IMG/VR virus record: IMGVR_UViG_3300028591_000109
Span: 64,001-128,000 of that record
From: a virus
Taxonomy: Duplodnaviria > Caudoviricetes
Direction: 5' to 3' (one strand)
DNA: 64,000 nt
This document shows positions 6 to 60,897 of the stretch, in pieces. The translations under genes were made by a program, and so were the position numbers. Under the pieces are notes generated by a model. It was not told the DNA's origin. It did no database searches and saw only the letters and a list, made by a program, of their open reading frames with translations. The first letter of the stretch is position 1. The number at the start of each line of letters is the position of its first letter.

Positions 6-3000
6 ATGAACGCAGCCGCTGATGCCGTGGAAGGGATGCTGGGACGCAGTGTGTCGATGCAGGACGTGATGAAACAATTGAATCAACAGGGAGCTCGTGC
101 GGGCATCGTGTTCGGTCTGCTGTCGCAGAACGTGGACACGCTGGAGAAGCAGTTGAAGATTGCTACCGATGCCTACCGTGACAACACTGCCCTGATGGCG
201 GAGTATAACAAGATGAACGACACGACCGCCGCCAAGTGGGAGCGACTGAAAAACCAGCTGGAGGAAGCGTTCGTTTCCGATTCCATACAGCGTGGACTGG
301 GCTCCCTTATTGACATGCTGCGCGGACTGGTGGACTTCATCACCGGCAATGTAACAGGTGTGCTCCAAAGCTTGCGCACTGCATTCCTTATGCTTGCAGC
401 CGCTGCGACGGTCTATAGGATAGAGCTTGGCAAGATGATTTTCGTGGAAAGTCTGTCGGGCCTTAGCAATCTTAAAAAGGCTCTCGTAGGCGTAAAGGAC
501 ACTATTCTGCTGACGGCTATGTACACCAAGGACTACATAGCACTGAAATGGAAACTCATCTTCGCGCATGGCGCTGAAGAGAAAGCGGCCATCAAGGCAA
601 AGATAGCTACGCTGGGACTGAACAAGGCACTGACTGCTAACGTATGGATGGCGGTCGTTGCAGCCATAGGGATGCTGTTGCTGAAGCTGTACCAATTTAA
701 CAAGGCTGCCAAGGAGGCTGCCGCAGAGACAGGACGTTTCAATCAGCAGATAGCCGACGAGCAGAAAGCCCTTAACAAGTTGTTTGAGCCGCTGAACAGG
801 TCGAACATGGCACAGGAAGAGCGACTGAAGCTCATCAACGAAATCAACTCGAAGTACGGCAAGTACCTGGGTTATATGCTCAGTGAGACATCTTCGGCCA
901 TTGCACTGGCCGACGCCCACGCCCTGATAGCCAAGCGCATCAGGGAGGAAGCCTACGAGAAGCGTATAGCCGAGAAGGAGGCGAAGATACAGGATGAGCA
1001 CAGCGAGGACGTGAACGCAGCCTACACCAAGATAACGGAGCGTGTACGTGGCAGCGTCAGGGGCGGTGCCAGCGCACAGGAGATTGCCGACGTGCTGAAA
1101 GGCATCGTTGACAACCGACTGGGCAGCATCAAGTATGCCTACGACGATTCGGACAATATCTTCAAAGCCCGTACCAACTACTACCTTGATCCAAAGATTA
1201 AGCAGGCCATCGACGGCGGCATCGAGCGGCTGATTGTTGACGGCAAACTGTCGCGTGACAACGTGACGCTGATTCAGAAGGCAGTATATAAATATACGGT
1301 AGAAGCCCACAGCCAGCACAAGGATATCATGAACCAGACATCGAACCTACGCTCTGACCTTCGCGGTGTGCAGAGTGCCATCAAGGTTGACCTGGCCAAC
1401 AACCTGAATACACTTGTCAGCAGGGTAGCCAGTTCGGTAGGCAATGCTGTGAGGAATATCCGCCAGCAGCAACAGCCACAGCAGAACGTGCCGCTGATGC
1501 TGCAGCAGCCACAGGGACAGGGTAGCAGACTGCCAAGTCTGTTTGGTGGAGGTCAGCAGGGCGGATGGCAGGCACCGTGGCAACAGGGCCGCGAGACTAC
1601 ACCGCAGCAGCAGGCGGCTCCGAAGGGATGGAAGCCTAATATAGACAAAAAGGACACAGAGGCGGTTCGCCAGTTCGTGCAAGACCAGGAGGCACTGCGC
1701 AGCGCACTGAATGCCAGCGGCAATCAGATAGACGAAGCACAGCGCAGGGTGGCTGAGTCGTGGCTGCTGACGGATGCCGAACTGAAGGAATACAAGAAGA
1801 TCGTGGAGAAGGCCGACCGTGGCCCCGGCGGCAGCAACCACAACCCTTACGGCGACTACAACAAAGTGACCTCGCCCTACAAGGAGTGGAACGGCAACGA
1901 CCTGGTGGCCCGCCGCAAGGAGATGCTGGAGCGCGTGAAGGCACTGGCCAACGGTGCCGACGTGCAGGCTGTGCTGTCGGAGGATGCCAAGTTTATCAGC
2001 GAGGCCGTGCGCAAGAACATCAAGACCACGGACCAGGCTATCGAGTGGTATAACACCGAGCGCCTGAAGATACAGGATGCGCTGCACGCCAAGCACCTGA
2101 CAAACACCGGCGACTGGATGGACCCGGAGAAGGTGAGGAAGCGTGTGGGCCGCGTGGTAAATGACGAGATGAAATACTATCTGGACGAACTGGACGCCTA
2201 CTACACCGAGCGGAAGGCGAAGATTCAGGAGGCACAGAACGACCAGGAGATAAGCGAGGCAGAGGCACGCAACCGCACGCTGGCCAACGATGCCGAGTGG
2301 CAGCAGCGTCGCGCCGAACTGCAACTGCTGTACTCGAAGCGTCGCGGCGAGGTGGTACAGCAGGAACAGGACGAAATCTTCCGCATCATATCGGAGCGCA
2401 CGGGCGAGACCACCGCCTACATCAAGGCCGACATCGCACAGACAAACCATCTCATCGAGGAGACAGGCAAGAAGAACAAGGCCGCCATGGACCGCATCTA
2501 CGGCGACATAGAACTGGGTGCCGAAAGGAGTTTCCTGCGCCAGCGCAACGCCATCGGGCAGCACATGAAGGACATCACGGCCATCGTGAACAAGGAGAAC
2601 CCCTACGCGGGCATCGCCGAGGAACTGCGCAAGAACCTGGGTACGATGGACGCGCTGCTGACCGACATCGAGAAGGAGGAGGAGCGCACCATGGAGAAGG
2701 AGATAGAGCGCACGATGTTCATCCTGGAGCAGTCGACCAAGGGCTACAGCCTGACGTGGGAGCAGCTGATGGGCGAGATGGCAAAGCGCGGCTGGCAGGC
2801 GTGGGCCGACGCCATCGACGGCGACTCGCAGACGCAGCAGCGGCTGATGCACCAGGTGTACCGCGTGTTCGAGAAGGTGCAGGATGCCATCAAGAAGGAA
2901 GCGTCGGAACTGAAGAAGCAGGCTGACATCATGTGGAGCAACATACTGCTGCCCGGCGGCGACGGCAAGACCACCATCAAGGATGCCTTCGAGCAGGCCA

Positions 3001-5153
3001 TCGGTGCGCTGGGCATCCAGGAGGGGCGCGTGAGCAGAGCCAACTCGCTCATCGGTGCAGGAGTAGCCAGCGAGCGCGTCGCCGATAAGCTCGCCATCCA
3101 GCAGCTGAAGGTGCAACTGGCCATGCAGCAGTATCAGTACAGTCTGGTGCATAAGATAGGTAAGGAGAAGATAGATATGCTGCGACGCGAGGCGGAGATG
3201 GAGTCGGACGCGGAGAAAGCCCGTCAGCTGAGGATGCAGGCACAGAACGCCGAAATGGCGCTGAACCTTGCCACCCGCAAGGAGCAGACCGACGAACTGA
3301 AACTGCAGGAAGATATCATCGCCAAGACGGAAGAGTCTGAGGCACGGCTCTATAAGGAGTTGCGCGAGTGGGCCGACCTGCTGACGAGCAGTTTGCAGGG
3401 CGTGATGGAGGCGAGCCATGCCGGCGATGCGGAATACTACAACGAGCTGGCGAAGCTGAACTTGACCGGCAAAGGCGGGCCAGGCGCAGGCACCTACATC
3501 GTCATTGACGATGCAGGCACCAGCGACGCCACCGCGCACTACGAATACCTCGACGAGCGGCAGGCCCTGGAGCGCGAGCACGAGATAGAGCAGCAGAACG
3601 CCCAGGCCGAGGCATGGAAGAAGGTGATGGATGACATCAACATGAAACTCAGCGAGACCATCACCGACCAGATCAATGCCATGCTGCAGAACCAGAGCAT
3701 TGATGCGAATACACAAGCGGTGCTTGCCAACACGCAAGCCATCTATGCGTCGATGGGGCAGAGTGCAGGTACAGGCGAGGGAATCACCCGCAATGCAGAG
3801 GGTTTCGCCGTTGACGAGAGCGGACAGGTGATATCGCCTATACAGCCGACGGAACCGACAAGTCAGCCGGAAGCCGAGACTCCAGCATGGAAGCCTTTCT
3901 GGCAGATGACGGACGAGGAGAAGGCCAAGAATCAGGAGAACATGACCGAGATGTTCGGCATGTACAGAGACCTTAGCGTGCAGACCGAGACGGAGAAAGC
4001 GGAATTGCTGGCCGAGGTGCCGGGATATACGCCTCCTGCCATCAGCATGACCGATGAGCAGATAGAGTCGGTAGGCGAGAAACTGGAAGCTCTCAACCAA
4101 AAGGAGATAGATGCAAGCAAGAAGAAGACGCAGGCTATTCTGGCCGACCAACAGGCGATAAAGCAGGGCGAGTTGCAGACCGACAAGACGATGACGCAAT
4201 CATCGAAGAACATGTACGCAGCCATGATGTCGGCTGCCAACCTCTACGGCGTGGCTTATCAGGCCATGACCAACGATAACTTGAGCGCTGAGCAGAAGTT
4301 CCAGATGATTGCCCTGCAGGCGGCAGGACAGTCGGCCATCGCAATGATGCAGACTAACATGTTCAAGTCCGAGACGGGCGCCCTCGTAGCACTGCCGCAA
4401 ATCCTTGCCGAGTGCTTGGAAATCAACCCGATTGCCGGTGCCGCCATCTTCGCCGTGCTGAGTGCCCTGCTGGGCGTGGCCATCGGAGCAGCCACCAGCA
4501 AGCTGGCCAAGGGTAAGTCGGAGGTGGCGCAAGTCACAGGTGCCAGCGCATCCGCTGGTCGCCTCTCGACGGGTATGCTGACCTACGCCGAAGGTAACGT
4601 GAACGAGTTTACTGACCCGGCATCGCTGACGCCGGGCCGACAGTACAACGTGGACGGGGCGGACGGCAAGACCTACCGCGCCCGGTACATGGGCAAGGGA
4701 GCCAAGACCCACATCACCAACGGGCCGGAGTTTCACCTCGTGGGCGAGGCAGGCCGCGAGGCCATCATCGACGCGAAGACCACCCGCCTGCTGCAGATGA
4801 ACGAGACCGGCATCTGGCGCGACATACAGACGCTCTACAACGGCGGCAGCATCGCGGGGCTGAGCACCCGCCGCCGTCGCGGCACTGGCGTGGCCGCTTT
4901 CGCGGATGGCAACGTCGGGGAGTTCGAGGAGATGGCTGATGGCGGAGGGCTGACGGCTGATGGAACGGGCGGCATGAACGCCGACGTGATGACCTCAATG
5001 CTGGAAACCAACAGCCGACTGGCCGACCTCTTGGAGAACGCCCTTGCGAACGGCATCAAGGCCGTAAACAAATGGACGGGCAGCGACGGCATCCCTGCGA
5101 TGTATAACAAGATGCAGAAGGAGGCGCAAAGGCACGGTGAGAAATACCTGTAG
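6..5153 (+). CDS. Phage tail tape measure protein (5'-truncated by window edge)
   Basis: 1715+ aa, Ala/Glu/Gln/Lys-rich helical protein with hydrophobic stretches and a C-terminal LVGEAGREAIID motif typical of TMP ends; virion gene context. Confidence 0.85.
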   Translation: MNAAADAVEGMLGRSVSMQDVMKQLNQQGARAGIVFGLLSQNVDTLEKQLKIATDAYRDNTALMAEYNKMNDTTAAKWERLKNQLEEAFVSDSIQRGLGSLIDMLRGLVDFITGNVTGVLQSLRTAFLMLAAAATVYRIELGKMIFVESLSGLSNLKKALVGVKDTILLTAMYTKDYIALKWKLIFAHGAEEKAAIKAKIATLGLNKALTANVWMAVVAAIGMLLLKLYQFNKAAKEAAAETGRFNQQIADEQKALNKLFEPLNRSNMAQEERLKLINEINSKYGKYLGYMLSETSSAIALADAHALIAKRIREEAYEKRIAEKEAKIQDEHSEDVNAAYTKITERVRGSVRGGASAQEIADVLKGIVDNRLGSIKYAYDDSDNIFKARTNYYLDPKIKQAIDGGIERLIVDGKLSRDNVTLIQKAVYKYTVEAHSQHKDIMNQTSNLRSDLRGVQSAIKVDLANNLNTLVSRVASSVGNAVRNIRQQQQPQQNVPLMLQQPQGQGSRLPSLFGGGQQGGWQAPWQQGRETTPQQQAAPKGWKPNIDKKDTEAVRQFVQDQEALRSALNASGNQIDEAQRRVAESWLLTDAELKEYKKIVEKADRGPGGSNHNPYGDYNKVTSPYKEWNGNDLVARRKEMLERVKALANGADVQAVLSEDAKFISEAVRKNIKTTDQAIEWYNTERLKIQDALHAKHLTNTGDWMDPEKVRKRVGRVVNDEMKYYLDELDAYYTERKAKIQEAQNDQEISEAEARNRTLANDAEWQQRRAELQLLYSKRRGEVVQQEQDEIFRIISERTGETTAYIKADIAQTNHLIEETGKKNKAAMDRIYGDIELGAERSFLRQRNAIGQHMKDITAIVNKENPYAGIAEELRKNLGTMDALLTDIEKEEERTMEKEIERTMFILEQSTKGYSLTWEQLMGEMAKRGWQAWADAIDGDSQTQQRLMHQVYRVFEKVQDAIKKEASELKKQADIMWSNILLPGGDGKTTIKDAFEQAIGALGIQEGRVSRANSLIGAGVASERVADKLAIQQLKVQLAMQQYQYSLVHKIGKEKIDMLRREAEMESDAEKARQLRMQAQNAEMALNLATRKEQTDELKLQEDIIAKTEESEARLYKELREWADLLTSSLQGVMEASHAGDAEYYNELAKLNLTGKGGPGAGTYIVIDDAGTSDATAHYEYLDERQALEREHEIEQQNAQAEAWKKVMDDINMKLSETITDQINAMLQNQSIDANTQAVLANTQAIYASMGQSAGTGEGITRNAEGFAVDESGQVISPIQPTEPTSQPEAETPAWKPFWQMTDEEKAKNQENMTEMFGMYRDLSVQTETEKAELLAEVPGYTPPAISMTDEQIESVGEKLEALNQKEIDASKKKTQAILADQQAIKQGELQTDKTMTQSSKNMYAAMMSAANLYGVAYQAMTNDNLSAEQKFQMIALQAAGQSAIAMMQTNMFKSETGALVALPQILAECLEINPIAGAAIFAVLSALLGVAIGAATSKLAKGKSEVAQVTGASASAGRLSTGMLTYAEGNVNEFTDPASLTPGRQYNVDGADGKTYRARYMGKGAKTHITNGPEFHLVGEAGREAIIDAKTTRLLQMNETGIWRDIQTLYNGGSIAGLSTRRRRGTGVAAFADGNVGEFEEMADGGGLTADGTGGMNADVMTSMLETNSRLADLLENALANGIKAVNKWTGSDGIPAMYNKMQKEAQRHGEKYL

Positions 5154-5194: not shown

Positions 5195-5387
5195 CGCTTC
5201 GCTTGGATAATTTGAAATCAATTTGAACAATTTCCCGCGAAGCGGCCTTCTCTTAATTTCTCGCGAAGCGATACTTGACAAGGATGGCCTGACGGCCAGT
5301 AATCGAGGTTCATCCTCGCTTCGCTCGTCGAAGAAATTAGAGACTACAGCCTGACGGCTGGAAATTTCTCAAATTAAATTCAAATTT
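5195..5387. repeat. Cluster of AATTTC-hairpin elements without an adjacent nuclease gene
   Basis: Copies at 5229-5245, 5255-5271 and 5347-5366; shares ATAATTTGAA...AATTTGAACAATTTCC and GAAATTAGAGACT with the elements at 44.9 and 45.9 kb. Confidence 0.8.
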
Positions 5388-5401
5388 ACCATCTCTTGCA
5401 C

Positions 5402-41283: not shown

Positions 41284-42402
41284 ATGCGACAGACAACAAA
41301 CGAAACACAGGCCCTACAGTCGCTGATGGCAGAGTTTATCCGACTGGTAGCCTATCAGAACGAGAAACCCGTATTCGACGACGAAGGCATGGTGGCGCTT
41401 AGTGCCGACAACGCCTCGCCAGTCTATTTCTCCACCCGCCAGGTCATTGCCATCGCCCGACTGCTGAAGGGTATGACAAAGCCGCAGGGATGGCGCGACG
41501 CCGACGTGCAGATTATCTACGAGCTGGCAGCCAAGGCCGAACAGCGCGAAAGCGACGACCCCGACCACCTGCTGCGCACGATGATGCAGATTCACGGAAG
41601 CCATCAGGACTACGCCCCCACCATGCTCAACTCGCAATGGAGCGAAGAGAAGCAGACGATGACCGTCAGTCTGGAAGAGATGTTTGCCGGCCAGCCCGTA
41701 TTGCCGTGGCTCAGCAATGTGCGCTATGCCGCCGACGAGACCGAGAAGGCAGTCTGTTACGCCATCACCGCCGCCGTGCTGCGTTATACCGACGACGACA
41801 CAGTGCTTACCTTTATCGCCCACCCCAGCGACGCCAAGCAAGTGGAGCGGCAGATGGACGGCGAACTGTTCCCACGCAAGGAATGGGAGGGCGAGTGCGA
41901 GCTTCCGTCAGAAGCGCTGACTCCAAGCAGTAAGAAAGAGATAGCCGACTACATGCTCGAAGCCCTGCAGCAGGATCCCCAAGAAGCGTGGCCGCTCAGA
42001 CAGTCCGAGCCGGGAGCAACGTGGTTTGCACCGCGACACGGCGTGGTGGAGATTGACGGCATACCTGTGCCGACGGCCATCAACGAGTTCAGCTCAGCCA
42101 ACATCCTGAGCGTAGAAGTGGGTACCAACGGATTCCAGGGTGGCGACACCGGTCACGGCGGACGCACCTGCCTGCGCATCATTGACGAGGGTTGTACCGA
42201 CCTGCGCTGCCGCGTCAAGGCCAACGGCAAGTGGCATAACTACGACAACGCCTGCGAAGCCAATGAGATAGAAATCATACTTGGCGGTGACACCGAGCTT
42301 GGCACCTTCAGCAACGCCCTTCGCTTTGCCGCAGACGTGCTGGAGAAGAAGATAACGGGCGAGCTGATGCTGGTCGTTCCGAAAAACTACAAGCAGCAAT
42401 GA
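41284..42402 (+). CDS. Hypothetical protein
   Basis: 372 aa; C-terminal GTNGFQGGDTGHGGRT motif. Confidence 0.65.
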   Translation: MRQTTNETQALQSLMAEFIRLVAYQNEKPVFDDEGMVALSADNASPVYFSTRQVIAIARLLKGMTKPQGWRDADVQIIYELAAKAEQRESDDPDHLLRTMMQIHGSHQDYAPTMLNSQWSEEKQTMTVSLEEMFAGQPVLPWLSNVRYAADETEKAVCYAITAAVLRYTDDDTVLTFIAHPSDAKQVERQMDGELFPRKEWEGECELPSEALTPSSKKEIADYMLEALQQDPQEAWPLRQSEPGATWFAPRHGVVEIDGIPVPTAINEFSSANILSVEVGTNGFQGGDTGHGGRTCLRIIDEGCTDLRCRVKANGKWHNYDNACEANEIEIILGGDTELGTFSNALRFAADVLEKKITGELMLVVPKNYKQQ

Positions 42403-42601: not shown

Positions 42602-43381
42602 ATGAAACACTTGGATTTTACGATTGACTTTGAGACCGTCGGGCTGACGGCGAACGCCGCGCCGATGATGGTGGCCATCGTGCCATGGAACAGAGACGCC
42701 AAGGAAGACCCGTTCACGATGGACGAGGACGGGACACTCACCGAGGAGCAGACCAGCAAGTGGCCGGAGCCGCTGGAGCTGTATGTGGACCTGCGCTCCT
42801 GCGTGGTCGAGGGCTACAACTTCGACCCGGCGACCGTCGAGTGGTGGACGAAGCAGAGTTACGACGCGAAACGGGCCGTATGCGACGGGCTGGCCCAACC
42901 CGTGGACGAGGTGACGGTGGAGATTGTGGGCTACCTGAGCCGCACAAAAGAGCAACTTGGACTGGACAGCATCTGCCTCTGGAGCCAGGGCGACACCGAC
43001 CAGGGCATCCTGCGCAACCTCTGCCGCCGCAACGGCTACAACATGGAGGAGGACGTCATCCCCCACACCCAACTGCGCGACTGCCGCACGTTGATACTGG
43101 AGGCGGCGCTGATAAAGCGGATGCGAGAGATTAAGGAGAGAAACGAGCAATTGATCAAGAGCGGCAAGGCAGTGACCGATGTTGAGATTATGCCAGACGG
43201 CAGTGTCGTTCCGTGTACGCTTCTGCCCAAGCAGATACTCGCCGGCAGCTACGACGTGTACAAACTCTTCCCTCCCCTACCCGACCGCTACGCCAAGGGC
43301 AGCGAGGCGCACGACGCGCTCTACGATGCCCTGCGCTCGTCGTGGAACACGTGGCAGGCGCTGCAGTGGATGAAGGGATAA
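42602..43381 (+). CDS. DEDDh 3'-5' exonuclease (RNase T/exonuclease VIII-like)
   Basis: IDFET, WSQG..D, RDCRT and HDALYDA motifs. Confidence 0.85.
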   Translation: MKHLDFTIDFETVGLTANAAPMMVAIVPWNRDAKEDPFTMDEDGTLTEEQTSKWPEPLELYVDLRSCVVEGYNFDPATVEWWTKQSYDAKRAVCDGLAQPVDEVTVEIVGYLSRTKEQLGLDSICLWSQGDTDQGILRNLCRRNGYNMEEDVIPHTQLRDCRTLILEAALIKRMREIKERNEQLIKSGKAVTDVEIMPDGSVVPCTLLPKQILAGSYDVYKLFPPLPDRYAKGSEAHDALYDALRSSWNTWQALQWMKG

Positions 43382-43410
43382 TCAAAAGGGATTTTCAAGC
43401 AAAGGAAAAG

Positions 43411-43447
43411 AAAAGCGGACCAACGGTACTTGTGCCGTTGGCCCACT
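43411..43447. terminator. Hairpin between convergent transcription units
   Basis: ccaacggtac/gtgccgttgg stem with upstream A-tract. Confidence 0.55.
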
Positions 43448-43485
43448 TGGTGTGTTGTATCATTTTCGTGAGGTCACGAAAATGG

Positions 43486-44364
43486 TCAGAAGTCGTAGTT
43501 ATCCTCCCCACTCCACTCGCCGTTGACGGTGAAACCGAAGCCGCTCTGGGTGATGGTGCCCTCGCCTTCGGAGAAGAGGGGGCCGGTGTAGCTGGTGATG
43601 CGGTTGCGCGTGACGGGGACGGCATCGAGGGTTCGCTTCTTGATCACGTCGCCCTGGGCGGTGAGGGCGGTGATGGTGACTTTCAACGTGCCGGAGGAGG
43701 AGAGATAAGGGAAGGTGAAGATTTCGTAGACGTCATCGGCGGCAACAGGGCGCGTCTCTGATTGTGTCGATTTCGTGGTGCCCTCGCCGGTGGTGGGGTT
43801 GAAGTTGGCCGAGCCGCCGGTGTAGTCGAACTTGACATGCGTGAGCTGAGCGGGGATTTCCTCGTCGGTGAACTGGAAGCGCACCATAGCGCCCATGCGG
43901 TTCATCGTGAGCTGGTGCTGTTCGGGTGCTTCGCCAACGGTCACGGTGCCGCCATAGCAGAAGGTGTCCGTCAGCTTCTGGCCGTCGCTGGCCGTGAACT
44001 GCACCATCTCCATGCTCTTGATGGTGGCACTCTTGGCCGACGAGTGACCGACGGCCACCACGCCATACTCCCCGGCAGGCAGCGTGAGCGACAGCTGTCC
44101 GAAGTTCTCGTCGGTGGAGTATTGCGTGCGCACCTTGTCGAAATACTTAGTGCCGTCGGCATTGAACAGCATGACGTTGAGCTTCGAGAAGCAGGTGCCA
44201 ATGTCGGTGGCGGCGGCGCGGGTCGTCGCGCCGTGGGCGCTGAACGTGAGGGTCACGTTGCCAAGTGGTTCGTTACTGTCCTCTGTGTCGAGGATGGGTT
44301 TCTCGCAGGCGACGAGTGCCATGCTGATTGCGCACAGGACGCAGAGATTCTTGATTGCTTTCAT
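43486..44364 (-). CDS. FimB/Mfa2-type fimbrial lipoprotein 1
   Basis: Lipobox ALVA-C, TRA processing motif, VPVTRNRITSYTG C-terminal strand. Confidence 0.75.
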   Translation of the reverse strand: MKAIKNLCVLCAISMALVACEKPILDTEDSNEPLGNVTLTFSAHGATTRAAATDIGTCFSKLNVMLFNADGTKYFDKVRTQYSTDENFGQLSLTLPAGEYGVVAVGHSSAKSATIKSMEMVQFTASDGQKLTDTFCYGGTVTVGEAPEQHQLTMNRMGAMVRFQFTDEEIPAQLTHVKFDYTGGSANFNPTTGEGTTKSTQSETRPVAADDVYEIFTFPYLSSSGTLKVTITALTAQGDVIKKRTLDAVPVTRNRITSYTGPLFSEGEGTITQSGFGFTVNGEWSGEDNYDF

Positions 44365-44430
44365 TGTTTCTTTGGTGTTTAGCCGTCTTACGACGGGAAA
44401 TTAATCAAATTTTGTTCAAATTATTAAATA

Positions 44431-44853
44431 TCAGAGAAGTTTTACCTTTTCGATGCGCCCATCGTTATGCCGATGAAACCACTCTGCGTAGAGACTCGGC
44501 GCACCGAAATTGATAATCATGCCGTATGGCTGATGCGTCAGATTCATGTAGTTAAACAGTTGTCTACGATGACAGGTTTCAACATGCGATACAGCTTTCA
44601 ACTCACAGATGATGTTGCCGCCAATCATCAAGTCCATACGGTACGACTGATCTAACTGAACGTCGTCCCAGAATATTGGGAGGTACACCTGCCGCTCCAC
44701 CTGTACTCCTTTCAGTTCCAGCAGGTATTTTAGAGCGGCCTCGTAGGCACTTTCCACCAGTCCTGGCTTGAACTTGCGGTGTACGCGCATGGCTTCGCCA
44801 GTGATGTCGGCAAAGAACTGATACCGCTGGTTGTATTCTTTTATCAAATCCAT
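44431..44853 (-). CDS. GxxExxY protein 1 (PD-(D/E)xK nuclease fold)
   Basis: GLVESAY, YRMDL, IICELKAV, QLFNYM and GMIINFG motifs. Confidence 0.9.
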   Translation of the reverse strand: MDLIKEYNQRYQFFADITGEAMRVHRKFKPGLVESAYEAALKYLLELKGVQVERQVYLPIFWDDVQLDQSYRMDLMIGGNIICELKAVSHVETCHRRQLFNYMNLTHQPYGMIINFGAPSLYAEWFHRHNDGRIEKVKLL

Positions 44854-44990
44854 AGTTGGGTGTTTTAAACCGTCTTACGACGGGAAATTATTCAAATTAT
44901 TCTCAAATTATTCAACCCTGCGGATGGAAAAGTTCTAATAATTTGAATTAAATTTGAACAATTTCCACCCGTCAGGGTGCTCAGAAGTCA

Positions 44991-45863
44991 TCAGAACTCC
45001 ACGGTGTCGAACTCCTGCCAGTCATTGACCGTGAAGGTGGAGGTGAAGGCGGCATCGGTGAAGAAGGCGCCGCGATACGTGGTGCGGTAGCCGTTGCAAA
45101 GGGGCACGTCGTCGAAGGTGCGCTGCTGGAGGGGCTGGCCGGCGGTGTCGTAGGCGGTGACGGTGACGGTGTGGAGCACGGACTCGTCGGGGTCAGCGAT
45201 GACGTAGGCGGAGAGGGTCACGCTGCCGTCCTGATTGAGGTTGTAGCCTTGGTAGGTGGCAGTGTAATCACGGGGGTTCATGCCATAGCCGGCGACGTTC
45301 CATGCGGCGGGAGCCTGGTCAACGGCGATGGTGATCTTGTCGGCCTCGGAGGGCACGGGGTCGGTGGTCTCCAGTCGGAACTGGCCCACGATGCGCTGCA
45401 TGAGGCACGAGAGCGTGGTGGTCTCGGCGGGGGTGAACGTCTGGGTATAGAACATCGAGTGGGTCATCTTCGCGCCCGGCCAGGTGATGATACCGCCTTG
45501 CAGGGTAGCCGCGCCGGTGTCCTTATGGGCACAGGCATAGAGCGTGTAGGTCTTGCGCTTGTCGAGGGTGACGGTGAGGGAGCCGAAGGCTGGGTCGGTG
45601 CTGGTCTGGTGGACGGCCTGCACCTCCTGGCCGTCCTGGTAGAGCCAGACATCAAGGCGGGTGGCGATGGTGGCGATGCTGGTGGGGTCACCTCCGGCAC
45701 GGGTCATGGCCTCCTGCTCGTAGGGCGAGAAGGTGAGCGTCACCTTCTGCGGATCGTTCACGTTGGCGGGGTTCATCACTGTGCTCTCTGTTTCGAGGGC
45801 GTTGTTTTCACAGGCTGTCAGTGCCATCAGGGCACACGACAGCAGGGCAAAATACTTCTTCAT
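44991..45863 (-). CDS. FimB/Mfa2-type fimbrial lipoprotein 2
   Basis: Lipobox ALTA-C, MTRA motif, VPLCNGYRTTYRG; paralog of lipoprotein 1. Confidence 0.75.
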   Translation of the reverse strand: MKKYFALLSCALMALTACENNALETESTVMNPANVNDPQKVTLTFSPYEQEAMTRAGGDPTSIATIATRLDVWLYQDGQEVQAVHQTSTDPAFGSLTVTLDKRKTYTLYACAHKDTGAATLQGGIITWPGAKMTHSMFYTQTFTPAETTTLSCLMQRIVGQFRLETTDPVPSEADKITIAVDQAPAAWNVAGYGMNPRDYTATYQGYNLNQDGSVTLSAYVIADPDESVLHTVTVTAYDTAGQPLQQRTFDDVPLCNGYRTTYRGAFFTDAAFTSTFTVNDWQEFDTVEF

Positions 45864-46021
45864 AGTTTTGCTTGGGTTTTAAGTTTGTTGATGATTGGGG
45901 TTTATTATGGCCTTACGGCCAGAAATTAGAGACTGCCGCCGTTGGCGGGAAATTTTTTTATTGCACTTAATTTCTCGGCGACAGCCGATAGTCTGAAAAT
46001 TTCTGCGCGATAGCGCATCCA

Positions 46022-46444
46022 TTACAGCAGCTTCACCTGTTCTACCTCGCCGGTCGTCACATTGAGTTCGTACCATTCGCTGTAGAGACTCTTGCTGCCA
46101 AAGTTGATAATCATGCCATACCTCGTATGAGTGATGCGCATATAGCTCCAGAGTTGCTGGCGGTGTTCAACGCTCACGAATTTCACCGCCTTCAGTTCGC
46201 AGATGACGCCGCCGACCACGAGGTCCATACGGTACGACTGGTCGAGGGGCACGTCGTCCCAGAAGATGGGCAGGTACACCTGCCGCTCCACCTTCATGCC
46301 TTTCAGTTCCAGCAGGTACTTCAGCGCCGCCTCGTAGGCGCTCTCCACCAGTCCGGGTCTGAACTTGCGGTGTACGCGCATGGCTTCGCCCGTGATGTCG
46401 GCAAAGAACTGATACCGCTGGTTGTGTTCCTTGATTGCATCCAT
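46022..46444 (-). CDS. GxxExxY protein 2
   Basis: 140 aa; close paralog of 44431-44853. Confidence 0.9.
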   Translation of the reverse strand: MDAIKEHNQRYQFFADITGEAMRVHRKFRPGLVESAYEAALKYLLELKGMKVERQVYLPIFWDDVPLDQSYRMDLVVGGVICELKAVKFVSVEHRQQLWSYMRITHTRYGMIINFGSKSLYSEWYELNVTTGEVEQVKLL

Positions 46445-46640
46445 AGTTTTGCTTGGGTTTTAAGTTAATAATTGGGTTGTTTTGTTAGCGCCCTTGCGGG
46501 CGGAAATTGTAAGAAAATTGGGTAAGAAAATGCGCTTCGCTTGAAAAGAATTTTTATAATCACTGCAAGAATTTTTATAATTTTCTTACAAGCGGAGCGC
46601 ATTCTTTTAGAATTTCCCGCCGACAGGCGGCTAAGAATAG

Positions 46641-46668
46641 AAAAGCCGCTCCTTTGCGGGAGCGGCTG
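46641..46668 (-). terminator. Intrinsic terminator
   Basis: agccgctcc/ggagcggct stem with T-tract on the minus strand. Confidence 0.75.
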
Positions 46669-46700
46669 TATAATATATAAATGTGTGCGGGCATTGCGGG

Positions 46701-47351
46701 CTAAGACTTTTTCGGGGTTATTACAATCTCTGTCTCGTCGCCAATAGTACTATACAATCGTGGATTTTTGTCAGCGAATGCCTTGCCGATGGCAGCGATA
46801 ACGCTAATGTCTATGCCACCCCTTACGAACAGGTGTATATAATCGTCCACTTTGACATTCTCTAACGAGCATTCACCTCCGAAATCGTCGTTGTCAAGTA
46901 TCTCTGTCACTTTCTCTGCCACTGCTTGCTCTTTCTCTGAGTAGTCGCATCTTTCAGCCATAAGAGCATCCTTCACATATTGGTGGTATTCGTCTTTCCA
47001 CAGACCATGCTTTGCCAGCAGGGAAACGATGTTGCATGAAGGTTCAAAATCGTCACAATCATACACATCACGTTGTGTCTCTATCCAGTCACGGATATCA
47101 TAGCAGTCGATGTCATAGTCCTTGTCAATCAGGCAAACATCGTCCTCGTTCTCTACGACTCTATCAAGCGACCACCGCTCCATACGCTCGTCGCCATGAA
47201 TAAGATAGCGCGTCACTACGCAGTCATCGTCCGTCAGGATGCGCACCTTGCGGTCTGCTTCTCCAAGAGTATAGCCCTTGTCGTCTTCTTTGCGACAGTC
47301 CAGTTTCAGCTTTACCAGTACGTTTACTTCTTCGATTGATATTACTTTCAT
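46701..47351 (-). CDS. Hypothetical protein
   Basis: 216 aa, acidic, ACGACTATG leader. Confidence 0.6.
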   Translation of the reverse strand: MKVISIEEVNVLVKLKLDCRKEDDKGYTLGEADRKVRILTDDDCVVTRYLIHGDERMERWSLDRVVENEDDVCLIDKDYDIDCYDIRDWIETQRDVYDCDDFEPSCNIVSLLAKHGLWKDEYHQYVKDALMAERCDYSEKEQAVAEKVTEILDNDDFGGECSLENVKVDDYIHLFVRGGIDISVIAAIGKAFADKNPRLYSTIGDETEIVITPKKS

Positions 47352-47364
47352 AGTCGTTTTGTTT

Positions 47365-47664
47365 TTAATTCGTTTCGTCATTCAGCATATCCTCCACGCC
47401 CTGCCAGTCTTTGAGCACGATGTGGGTAATGAGATTGATGGCGATGCCGACAAAACCGTCCTTCAGTTCGCCATAGGAAGTATTTACCATCGAGAGGTTG
47501 CCGAGAGTTATCTTCACTGCGGCCCGCTGCTCCTGCGTCAACGCAAACTTACGGGCGAGGCTGTCGGTGGTGTCGCCGATATTCTCTTCGCCTTCGATTG
47601 TACGATTGAGGAAGTCGGTCATTATCGAGATTACTTCCTTCTGGTAGATTTCATATTCGTTCAT
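47365..47664 (-). CDS. Hypothetical protein
   Basis: 99 aa in a co-oriented gene run. Confidence 0.55.
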   Translation of the reverse strand: MNEYEIYQKEVISIMTDFLNRTIEGEENIGDTTDSLARKFALTQEQRAAVKITLGNLSMVNTSYGELKDGFVGIAINLITHIVLKDWQGVEDMLNDETN

Positions 47665-47687
47665 ACTTTCGTTTCGTTTTTAGTTCG

Positions 47688-48104
47688 TTAATGCTTCTTC
47701 TTGCCATACTGCGGCTTCCCTCTATTCCAGCAACGGAGTAGTTCTGCCGCCGTGAACGGGAGGTCGGTGTAGCCGTGGTCATCCAGCAACGCCGCCACGT
47801 CCTTAACTGTCATCTGCACGCCGTCTTTAAGCCCATAGAATGCCGATGCCTCCAACTCCTTGTCCATATCCTTATGCTCAGACAGCCACTTAAAGATGGC
47901 GGCCTCCTTGCGCTTGATGTCTGCCACCTGCTGACGGCTTCTCGACTTATAGCCATAGCCAGCGTAAGCCTTCTGCACAGTCTTATAGCCGTAACCGTTG
48001 GCATCGTCCAATATCTCTCCCGTCTCAGTATTCACCACGATAAAGCGCGGCTCAAACTGCTCTGAGAGTTCCTTCGACTTGATTACTTTGATGTTGTCGT
48101 CCAT
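47688..48104 (-). CDS. Hypothetical protein
   Basis: 138 aa; GEILDDANGYGYKT motif. Confidence 0.6.
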   Translation of the reverse strand: MDDNIKVIKSKELSEQFEPRFIVVNTETGEILDDANGYGYKTVQKAYAGYGYKSRSRQQVADIKRKEAAIFKWLSEHKDMDKELEASAFYGLKDGVQMTVKDVAALLDDHGYTDLPFTAAELLRCWNRGKPQYGKKKH

Positions 48105-51991: not shown

Positions 51992-52681
51992 TTAATCTTT
52001 GTGCCACTCGGTCGTGACGTACTCGGTCAGGATGGCGCGGTTGTCGTTGTCAAGCTCGCGCCAGAACATTTGCATAGCGGCCTTGCTGCCGTACTTCTCG
52101 TAGCAGTAGTCCCACTTCTGCTGCAGGTGCTGACGGTTGCAGTGGGCCTTGGGGTGGCGCACCATGTAGTCGAGCCACAGGTTCTCGTCGTCGTAGTCCA
52201 TGCACCAGTCGCTCCAGAGGGCGATAATGTCCTTCGCCTCCGAGGGAGAAGCCTCGGACTGCTGCTTGTCCTGCGCTGCCTGCTCCAGCCAGCGGGCTAT
52301 GTTCTGCAGCGTGTCGGTAGGCAGGCTTTCGGGATCCACCTGTACCTCGGGCAGGTTGGTGAAGTCCACAAGGAAGGTGAGCGGCGTGGGATCGTCGGCG
52401 TTGTAGTGCATGGCGAACACGAAGCCCTGTTCGTCCGTGCCGTCGTCGAAGTAAATAGGCACGAAGTTCAGCCCATCGCACACGGGCTTTGTGCCGAAGT
52501 TATACAGGTCGATGCCTATCTGCCCCGGTGTGAGGCGGCTCTCGCTGATGCGCAGCGGCTCCGGCTTTATCCTGCCATTCAGGTAATAGTTAGACACTGT
52601 GGCCACGAGGTCGGTGAGATACTGGATGGCCTGCTGCTTCTCGTTCTGTTGGTCGATGACCTGGTTCTTTGTCTTGCTCAT
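51992..52681 (-). CDS. Hypothetical protein
   Basis: 229 aa. Confidence 0.65.
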   Translation of the reverse strand: MSKTKNQVIDQQNEKQQAIQYLTDLVATVSNYYLNGRIKPEPLRISESRLTPGQIGIDLYNFGTKPVCDGLNFVPIYFDDGTDEQGFVFAMHYNADDPTPLTFLVDFTNLPEVQVDPESLPTDTLQNIARWLEQAAQDKQQSEASPSEAKDIIALWSDWCMDYDDENLWLDYMVRHPKAHCNRQHLQQKWDYCYEKYGSKAAMQMFWRELDNDNRAILTEYVTTEWHKD

Positions 52682-60834: not shown

Positions 60835-60897
60835 ACTCGCTTGAATAATTTTAATTAAATTTTTGGATAATTTCTCGGCGCGAAGCGACGACCCCAA

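Follow-up and report, generated by a model that had tools for sequence, protein, structure and literature searches.

The window analysed here, a stretch of 64,000 nt, comes from a rumen phage with a genome of 141,567 bp (~141.6 kb; G000), and it contains short hairpins, each preceded by the hexamer AATTTC, that gather around two genes of the GxxExxY nuclease family. The question raised by this locus is what these hairpin units are and how they relate to the nuclease genes that lie among them.

Census and anatomy of the AATTTC units

Twelve perfect units, each consisting of an AATTTC foot and a hairpin with a stem of 4-5 bp and a loop of 3-4 nt, were found in the window, with the foot starting (plus strand) or ending (minus strand) at 5229, 5255, 5366(-), 44402(-), 44889(-), 44960, 45927(-), 45954(-), 45969, 45998, 46508(-) and 46611. 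A hairpin is present at 13 of the 40 AATTTC sites of the window, and the scan yielded an additional marginal unit at 5320-5338(-) that is absent from the list given in the original prediction. The 13 elements of that list were all recovered where they had been placed, the copy at 60865-60893 being imperfect, and the assignment of nine units to the surroundings of the two GxxExxY genes was likewise confirmed, both genes being matches to PF13366.

The complete G000 genome contains 32 perfect units, compared with a mean of 0.69 (maximum 4) in 200 shuffled sequences, and all of them are intergenic according to rough gene calls. In 30 of the 32 units the loop, read along the AATTTC strand, is of the G..A form, which extends to the whole genome a rule initially proposed for the window, and a C-G pair closes the loop of every unit with the exception of the marginal copy at 5338. 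Since perfect pairing was the search criterion, the fact that 100% of the stems are paired is not independent evidence; the informative observation is that about 14 different stems are found among the units. The units of G000 are distributed over approximately 15 nuclease-free loci and two nuclease-bearing cassettes. The features of the window are as follows:

5201..5394, nuclease-free cluster: two tandem units on the plus strand (5201-5271) and two on the minus strand (5320-5394), with hairpins that face each other, unlike the other pairs; followed at ~5403 by a promoter-like site of the GCCCTTGA type
43413-43448, second terminator, after lipoprotein-1
43486..44364, minus strand, lipoprotein-1, 292 aa, last gene of the invaded gene string
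44383..44430, minus strand, solo unit (hairpin 44383-44396, foot 44397-44402, AT arm 44403-44430); the hairpin ends 18 nt ahead of the lipoprotein-1 start codon, and the unit is a direct copy of the one in front of GxxExxY#1
44431..44853, minus strand, GxxExxY#1, 140 aa, PD-(D/E)xK nuclease fold (PF13366 match, E 9e-32)
44870..44979, inverted pair between lipoprotein-2 and GxxExxY#1: minus-strand unit 44870-44917 and plus-strand unit 44932-44979, hairpins outermost; the orthologous copy in phage G001 is identical
44991..45863, minus strand, lipoprotein-2, 290 aa, weak DUF6562 match
45900..46635, 736-bp block comprising a pair, a leader copy, GxxExxY#2 and the double pair; present here and absent in G001, each end lying 5-7 nt outside a hairpin
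45908..46017, double inverted pair: minus-strand hairpins 45908-45921 and 45936-45948, plus-strand hairpins 45975-45988 and 46004-46017, each of the four with its own foot
46022..46444, minus strand, GxxExxY#2, 140 aa, 76% identical to GxxExxY#1 (PF13366 match, E 2e-29)
46489..46630, inverted pair with a different arm repeat: minus-strand unit 46489-46540 and plus-strand unit 46579-46630; a nuclease-free homologue of this pair is found in phage G003 at 44755-44890
46644..46667, minus strand, canonical terminator (hairpin and T-run) after a 226-aa gene
60865..60893, plus strand, degenerate unit with AT arm and foot present and an imperfect hairpin (model score 12 bits, E 3.4)

No terminator was found between the four genes.

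The hairpin forms just the end of a longer arm that is built of phased repeats. An AT-rich arm of ~26 nt always accompanies it, and the foot is the last repeat of this arm, being the third of three AATTT repeats phased ~11 bp apart; the layout consists of the three repeats, ending in the constant AATTTC foot, and then one or two GC hairpins with G..A loops. The roughly 14 kinds of stem recombine with different arms, and the possibility that stems are copied from the target site was ruled out, as identical stems are found between different flanks and one orthologous site carries differing stems. Some units stand alone, and others are arranged in tandem or as inverted pairs; the mirror pairs have 55-102 nt between their feet. 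In both arms of a pair the G..A loop lies on the strand of the arm's own foot, which would be expected if the two ends were read as single strands of equal polarity. When folded as DNA the units reach -3.4 to -6.2 kcal/mol, with equal values on both strands, although these energies cannot show a strand asymmetry because the parameters give G..A loops no bonus; C-GNA-G loops are specially stable. An Rfam search of positions 43000-48000 produced no match, with sub-threshold miRNA-like matches on the palindrome only, and the G-type arm pattern had no exact match in viral contigs.

The GxxExxY protein and its repeats in bacteria and other phages

GxxExxY#1 and GxxExxY#2 are the sole two copies of the family in G000, and PF13366 (PDDEXK_3), with scores of 110 and 103 bits (cut-off 22), is their sole Pfam match. 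In an alignment with 34 relatives, G31, E34, Y37, E84 and K86 are invariant and D74 is nearly so; the GxxExxY and D...ExK motifs are present and the catalytic E, D and ExK residues are conserved. The AlphaFold2 model of GxxExxY#1 obtained with an alignment has a pLDDT of 96 (38 in a single-sequence prediction), and its structural neighbours are all PD-(D/E)xK enzymes, with Z up to 8.3. Foldseek returned only weak PD-(D/E)xK matches in the PDB, and a sequence search of solved structures with the GxxExxY protein gave no match. We know of no substrate for this very widespread family of small nuclease-fold proteins, whose name is scarcely mentioned in the literature searched.

The hosts of the cassettes are rumen Bacteroidales and their phages, and the arms bracket small GxxExxY genes. 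In both bacteria and phages the nuclease gene lies between two arms in mirror orientation, while nuclease-free arms are found in other intergenic gaps, either alone or as mirror pairs. Using 27 Bacteroidales loci whose encoded proteins are 56-76% identical, we determined a density of 2.42 units per kb within 150 bp of the GxxExxY gene and 0.19 per kb beyond (~13-fold), so that the enrichment near these genes anticipated for other genomes was indeed observed. At these loci the foot points toward the gene in 9 of 11 upstream and 8 of 8 downstream units, with the hairpins outward, and when the foot was relaxed, a nearby unit was detected at 16 of the 27 loci and on both sides at 10. Genome-wide searches of five assembled bacterial genomes (2-4.4 Mb) with the covariance model R1, whose training set consisted in part of loci beside GxxExxY genes, gave few strong matches, which are grouped at GxxExxY genes (G006 contigs 43 and 56, G009 contig 62, G008 contig 7 and G007 contig 95). 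Bacterial pairs devoid of the gene span 100-150 bp. Approximately 11 of 13 divergent paralogs in the same genomes are bracketed, as judged by eye, by mirror arrays of a short repeat of their own.

The phage homologues are bracketed in a similar manner; they keep the foot and the GC hairpin at the arm tip and differ in the inner repeats. Phage G013, which has one gene, contains its own arm end 17 times and a control pattern not once; these ends are mostly arranged as mirror pairs, one of which encloses the gene. Two genes accompany 32 units in G000, one gene accompanies 13 units in G001, and the complete relatives G003 and G004 have no GxxExxY gene and 5 and 2 units, respectively, a trend confounded by kinship given that the genome sample is small and related. 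The persistence of units in these two complete phages that do not have the gene runs counter to a nuclease-driven view.

Variation between relatives and competing explanations

The polymorphism expected at orthologous sites is observed, as for the 736-bp block (45900-46635), which is missing in G001 between flanks that are ~95% identical. The block includes an imperfect copy of ~24-38 nt of the neighbouring gene's leader, and its junctions display no target-site duplication, an observation that also goes against a nuclease-driven view. At one gene junction, five or more states of occupancy are found, and the lipoprotein-2/lipoprotein-1 junction is empty in contigs L115 and L116 and occupied in other contigs by two GxxExxY types with different arms. 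Identity between relatives begins exactly at AATTTC in two comparisons (G000 137512 with G001 172, and G000 131555 with G001 5684) and ends exactly there in another (G000 4042 with G001 76646), and at G000 135153 versus G001 2655 the hairpin has been replaced outright and several arm positions differ in a context that is 97% identical. Unit loci coincide with homology breakpoints in 10 of 14 cases compared with 30 of 59 other gaps, which is not a significant enrichment, and the idea that units mark mosaic breakpoints was dropped.

Based on the enrichment and on the presence/absence polymorphism, the proposal that the repeats form a family linked to the nuclease gene, and that some copies have no nuclease, holds. 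The cassettes and nuclease-free loci that vary between phages point to a nuclease-and-repeat partnership that has not been described, one whose cutting step we only infer. We give an even chance to the reading that the units form the outer tips of the repeat arms in GxxExxY (PF13366) cassettes, which would form a nuclease-plus-repeat partnership acting on DNA. According to such a scheme, the nuclease would bind the phased repeats and, once the hairpin forms on single-stranded DNA, would nick or cut at the junction of foot and hairpin on the strand with the G..A loop; repair of the break might then copy the arms, along with any sequence they enclose, into further units or gaps. The expected outcome would be the spread of nuclease-free copies and the swapping of neighbouring genes, and any effect on the expression of flanking genes would be secondary. 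A more ambitious version seems unlikely: GxxExxY proteins would be structure-specific nucleases that recognise the phased AATTT array, cut single-stranded DNA at the AATTTC/hairpin junction and seed gene conversion, copying arms into new intergenic gaps and swapping the genes between them. This would make them the PD-(D/E)xK equivalent of RAYT and Ssn and a force behind the reshuffling of genes in rumen phages.

Of the other explanations, the one that treats the units as portable expression signals is somewhat improbable in our judgement. A promoter or A/T-rich upstream element would be combined with a 5' stabilising stem-loop that acts, when reversed, as a weak terminator, as in the promoter-early stem-loops (PeSL) of T4-type phages, and recombination between such signals would move many accessory genes, GxxExxY being just one among them. 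Ten units are co-directional with the next gene, their hairpins ending 16-44 nt (mostly 16-21) ahead of the start codon, and reverse units lie 3-12 nt past stop codons; moreover, single ORFs, namely GxxExxY#1 in this phage and an unrelated one in contig L111, are enclosed by direct copies of the unit, and in bacteria the downstream arm often precedes an A-rich leader and the start codon of the next gene. However, orthologous genes up to 98% identical are found in relatives with the same leader and no unit, and when unit loci adjoining homology were compared, the unit aligned at 4 of 12 in G003 and at 0 of 6 in G004. Three perfect solo units (131555, 135153 and 137512) and one imperfect unit oppose the surrounding genes, and where two genes converge (7401/7462), the two units would drive transcription into the gene ends. 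The Bacteroidetes promoter consensus has a -33/-7 spacing, which the arm does not show when inspected by eye, and TTTG is entirely absent from the T-type arm. A distinct class of GCCCTTGA-N19-TATAAT-like motifs is located 50-90 nt ahead of many genes, one of them beside a unit cluster, and canonical terminators are separately present in the phage. Finally, bacterial genomes contain few units, with a concentration at GxxExxY genes, and the arms of the paralogs share their layout and are unrelated in sequence. As for the solo units, about 8 of 12 are co-directional with the next gene, with a constant distance of 16-21 nt from hairpin to start codon, which fits an expression role equally well.

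It is distinctly unlikely that the repeats came before the nuclease and that GxxExxY is a homing-type or passenger gene inserting into the spacer of existing mirror pairs, which some other host or phage function would make and spread. Such an order of events would agree with the nuclease-free mirror pairs, whose layout is that of the gene-bearing pairs minus the gene, with the units in phages that have no GxxExxY gene and with the occupation of the same junction by two different GxxExxY types. Nevertheless, no alternative candidate enzyme was seen alongside the repeats, the phage has no Y1 transposase, the gene is off the pair centre in G000 and G001, and each paralog has its own arm sequence, implying that protein and repeat are matched rather than that the gene lodges in a common site. 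That the units might be ordinary intrinsic terminators, or hairpins that arose by chance and independently of one another, is barely conceivable: they are short, intergenic GC hairpins and one of them (45933-45948) is followed by a T-rich run, but 32 units are present where 0.7 are expected, foot and arm do not vary, Rfam gave no match, and the stems are of 4-6 bp with no T-run, in contrast to the 9-14 bp and T-runs of the true terminators of the region. A test for intrinsic terminators flagged 1 of 9 local units and found true terminators beside them. N4-type hairpin promoters served by a giant virion RNA polymerase were also considered and dropped, as the 3075-aa ORF is a tape measure protein.

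Significance and relation to known systems

If the arms are the substrate of the GxxExxY protein, a large family of functionally uncharacterised proteins would acquire a role, and a third independent case of nuclease and hairpin repeat would be added to RAYT/REP and Ssn/NTS. The phages would then provide a tractable system, in which relatives differ by whole cassettes and exchange occurs exactly at the 6-nt foot, and a site- and structure-specific single-strand nuclease would be of practical use, like the Ssn enzymes. Were the units merely expression signals, they would still constitute a compact gene expression module of Bacteroidales and their phages.

The PeSL regulatory cassettes of T4-type phages, reportedly described by Arbiol et al. 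in 2010, are said to carry an oriented host-type early promoter. They resemble the units in being repeated intergenic stem-loop motifs of variable phage regions whose copies bracket swapped ORFs; the present units differ in that they occur in both orientations and as mirror pairs, and also in bacterial chromosomes, where they are associated with a single gene family. MITEs and their parent insertion sequences likewise comprise gene-bearing and gene-less versions with terminal inverted repeats, whereas neither a DDE nor any other known transposase was seen here, nor a target-site duplication.

The nearest published systems are REP/RAYT and Ssn/NTS. The units share with REP/REPIN-RAYT a fixed short foot beside a hairpin, inverted doublets, an intergenic location and an enzyme gene flanked by repeats. 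The units are not members of that system: RAYT is an HUH/Y1 transposase whereas the genes flanked here belong to PF13366, and PF01797 (Y1_Tnp) had no match in G000 while the control genomes gave matches. In addition, REP elements have a conserved imperfect palindrome with a 5' GTAG foot, change little from copy to copy and are present in hundreds of copies, in contrast to the AATTTC foot, the ~14 stems combined with different arms and the tens of copies observed here, where no GTAG foot was found. Ssn nucleases have a GIY-YIG fold, and their cutting of single-stranded DNA has been proven by experiment; their partner, NTS, is one hairpin of ~30 nt with a fixed sequence (Chenal et al. 2025, PMC11893778). 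Ssn/NTS and the present system both combine a small nuclease gene that has a matching hairpin repeat on both sides with many nuclease-free copies around genes, and in both the repeat variants track the nuclease variants (PMC11893778). Cutting, experimental for Ssn, is only inferred for GxxExxY, which has a PD-(D/E)xK fold instead of GIY-YIG; and whereas the NTS hairpin is fixed, the hairpin sequence varies here and the constant part is the phased AT-rich array together with its foot.

The repeat units and GxxExxY genes of the phage

The source virus record (141,567 bp, 55.7% G+C, completeness rated 100%) carries two genes of the nuclease-fold family GxxExxY (PF13366, PDDEXK_3), the only PF13366 copies in the whole genome. 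The window, which also encodes a head maturation protease, contains:

6-5153 (genome 59926-69153 for the single 3075-aa ORF): C-terminal part of the tape measure protein
44431-44853, minus strand: GxxExxY#1, PF13366 (PDDEXK_3) gene, 140 aa
46022-46444, minus strand: GxxExxY#2, PF13366 (PDDEXK_3) gene, 140 aa
54390-59480, minus strand: DarB-like protein of 1696 aa, with matches to families of DarB-like antirestriction proteins, methyltransferases and helicases

Residues ~950-1490 of the tape measure ORF, which at 3075 aa is unusually long for such a protein, match tape measure families, and no family match was obtained for its C-terminal 1575 aa. The closest bacterial homologues of both GxxExxY proteins (56-76% identity) come from assembled genomes of rumen Prevotella and other Bacteroidales, and therefore this group probably includes the phage host. 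An AlphaFold2 model of the GxxExxY protein from a 34-sequence alignment reached a pLDDT of 96, with the helix Glu and the D...ExK residues conserved. Its structural neighbours are generic PD-(D/E)xK enzymes (BpuSI nuclease domain, Z 8.3; restriction-endonuclease-like proteins, Cas4, MGME1 and Hjc), none of them standing out. PF13366 was of unknown function in a 2012 superfamily survey; in the literature searched, GxxExxY is mentioned by three papers, and the two of these that were listed lack the name in both title and abstract.

All the AATTTC-hairpin elements listed in the original prediction are present at their sites in the window, and the feature is real. Scanning for AATTTC with a perfect hairpin directly after it (stem 4-7, loop 3-5) gave 13 window units and 32 genome-wide, against a mean of 0.69 and a maximum of 4 in composition-matched genome shuffles. 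All 32 are intergenic against rough gene calls, 30 have a loop with G first and A last on the AATTTC strand, and a C-G pair closes every loop except that of one marginal copy. The AATTTC foot is present at 9 of the 15 window hairpins with a G..A-type loop. A covariance model search added few units, all degenerate, including window 60865-60893.

Every foot is preceded by a conserved AT-rich arm of ~26 nt with two more AATTT repeats at a spacing of 10-12 bp, so that the foot is the third repeat of a phased array. Two arm flavours, G-type and T-type, are distinguished by AATTTG versus AATTTTT repeats, and a third occurs in the pair adjoining GxxExxY#2. No arm lacking foot and hairpin was found in six related phage genomes, and many units have a second foot and hairpin ~8 nt beyond the first. 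Units stand alone or as mirror pairs with the hairpins outermost, 55-102 nt from foot to foot, unlike the 5.2-kb cluster of the window, where the hairpins face one another. Copies at different sites are alike from hairpin to hairpin and unrelated outside. Within the pair upstream of GxxExxY#2, window 46525-46600 holds two more mini-hairpin motifs of the type GCG(A/G)AGC, oriented as mirror images, and an AT-rich word of 13 nt that occurs as a direct repeat.

Occupied and empty sites in related phages

Five related phage contigs were found by searching for the T-type arm pattern. Across four related phages, a small sample confounded by kinship, the number of units tracks the number of GxxExxY genes.

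Table. GxxExxY genes and repeat units in the source phage (G000) and its relatives
Genome; length and completeness; GxxExxY genes; units
G000; 141.6 kb, complete; 2; 32
G001; 95 kb, 80% complete; 1; 13
G003; 140 kb, complete; 0; 5
G004; 145 kb, complete; 0; 2

Presence/absence variation at orthologous sites was observed at window 45900-46635. This block, made up of a pair, a copy of the lipoprotein-2 leader, GxxExxY#2 and a double pair, is missing from G001 as a clean gap between flanks 88% and 95% identical; both its ends lie just outside a hairpin, by 5 nt at the start and 7 nt at the end, and the alignment with G001 revealed no target-site duplication. The site is also empty in the contigs L090 and L115, which keep the same left neighbour (a 226-aa gene, 94% identical). 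The relatives used in these and the breakpoint comparisons are ~90-95% identical to the phage and are not near-identical strains. Among rumen metagenome contigs, the junction between lipoprotein-2 and lipoprotein-1 (window 44991-45863 and 43486-44364, both minus strand) has at least five occupancy states:

States 1 and 2: empty, of two different kinds
State 3: type-A GxxExxY gene with G-type arms
State 4: type-B GxxExxY gene (69% identical) with T-type arms, canonical mirror layout
State 5: type-B gene and, between direct unit copies, an additional unrelated ORF

In contig L111 (~1330-1600), an unrelated ORF of ~70 aa lies between two direct unit copies just upstream of a GxxExxY gene. The empty junction (L090 2495-2530, L115 3367-3400) carries GTGAAGA(G/A)T repeats in tandem and, after them, an imperfect GC-rich hairpin; this array recurs at genome ~131590-131610, near a unit, and may represent another repeat family.

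In nucleotide alignments of orthologous or paralogous units, homology starts or stops exactly at AATTTC. Two cases are unrelated up to the foot and then share foot, hairpin and flank, with 100% identity over at least 70 nt in one and near-identity over ~45 nt in the other; a further case has ~90 identical nt through the foot and different hairpins and flanks beyond it. In another, with 97% identical context, an outright exchange of the hairpin is accompanied by differences at several arm positions. Across genomes, arm and stem combine nearly independently of each other: among the 34 pairs from different sites whose arms are at least 85% identical, only 6 have a stem in common, some 14 stems recur among units, and between genomes 29 pairs have only the hairpin in common and 23 only the arm. 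Since a constant joint of 6 nt is shorter than ordinary homologous recombination requires, these patterns hint at, rather than prove, breakage and rejoining at the foot.

Association with GxxExxY genes in bacteria and other phages

Enrichment of the units near GxxExxY genes extends to other genomes, as had been proposed. Around 27 bacterial loci of close homologues (1.5-kb flanks), exact AATTTC units with a GC hairpin have a density of 2.42 per kb up to 150 bp from the gene and 0.19 per kb beyond; in 9 of 11 upstream and 8 of 8 downstream units the foot faces the gene and the hairpin points away from it. With a relaxed foot, [AG]ATTT[CG], a nearby unit is found at 16 of the 27 loci, on both sides at 10. 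The covariance model (26 positions, 50 distinct units), run on five bacterial genomes of 2-4.4 Mb, gave only a handful of strong matches in each, clustering at GxxExxY genes; scoring was confined to the top 150 candidates of each genome, and part of the training set was taken from the same loci. Most of the other bacterial matches inspected are mirror pairs, 100-150 bp long, that contain no nuclease gene. Of 13 more distant paralogs examined in the same bacterial genomes (25-36% identity), ~11 have, as judged by eye, mirror arrays on both sides, each paralog with a short repeat of its own. GxxExxY homologues of other phages are bracketed too, by different inner repeats whose arm tip keeps the foot and a GC hairpin, often the GCGAAGC mini-hairpin. 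One phage contig, of 74 kb, has one GxxExxY gene and 17 copies of its arm tip, mostly as mirror pairs, one of which encloses the gene; the reversed control pattern has 0 copies there.

Gene context, expression signals and known systems

The focal region reads terminator, pair, GxxExxY#2, double pair, lipoprotein-2, pair, GxxExxY#1, unit, lipoprotein-1, terminator. As relatives have lipoprotein-2 directly followed by lipoprotein-1, the nuclease cassettes occupy gaps between genes of an apparent single transcription unit. Signals distinct from the units are:

Window 46644-46667 and 43413-43448: the only canonical terminators of the focal region, stems of 9 and 14 bp with T-runs
Genome 41394-41417, 42193-42215, 45571-45591, 52116-52138, and orthologues: A-rich leader
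Window 5403; genome 22428, 59281, 70945, 72795, 92105, 96769; minus strand 86527, 91998: examples of the GCCCTTGA motif

The nearly fixed leader, ~17 nt ending in the start codon, is common to many small plus-strand genes and is kept in relatives with or without a unit. The promoter-like class built of GCCCTTGA, a further ~19 nt and a TATAAT-like hexamer lies 50-90 nt upstream of many genes and points into many structural and other genes; one copy adjoins the 5.2-kb unit cluster of the window.

Ten units are co-directional with the next gene, whose start codon lies 16-44 nt (mostly 16-21 nt) past the hairpin end. Promoter or terminator activity, which the units may have as a secondary function, agrees with this constant distance and with the single ORFs bracketed by direct unit copies. 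That they are purely such signals is a weakened reading, since three perfect solo units (genome 131555, 135153 and 137512) are oriented against the surrounding genes, two of them with the hairpin 11-12 nt past a stop codon and two with the arm abutting the next start codon, and mirror pairs also lie between convergent genes (genome 7401/7462). Moreover, orthologues of the genes behind genome units 41374, 56344 and 38613 have no unit in G003 and keep the same A-rich leader, so that the units are dispensable for neighbouring genes. Three more points speak against pure expression signals: units are rare in bacterial genomes away from GxxExxY loci, the arms of paralogs have unrelated sequences, and canonical terminators and the GCCCTTGA/TATAAT-like class exist separately. 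Where the genome has T-type unit 45551 (45520-45588), the orthologous G001 segment (~91350-91420) has two direct AATTCGTG-containing repeats and no hairpin. In a bacterial genome (locus L075), another GxxExxY paralog has mirror arms made of this repeat.

A partnership between nuclease and repeat, with a mechanism that we infer from sequence, would account for the mirror layout, the matching of arms to paralogs, the copy-number trend, the filled and empty sites and the breakpoints at the foot; its central step would be cutting by the GxxExxY protein. The original prediction is partly supported: a repeat family tied to GxxExxY stands, on unit density and filled and empty sites. The system is not of the REP/RAYT type: no Y1 transposase was found in the phage, the foot is different and the stems vary. 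Nor does the system belong to Ssn, because the GxxExxY fold differs. In outline, it resembles both of these associations of a nuclease or transposase with hairpin repeats.
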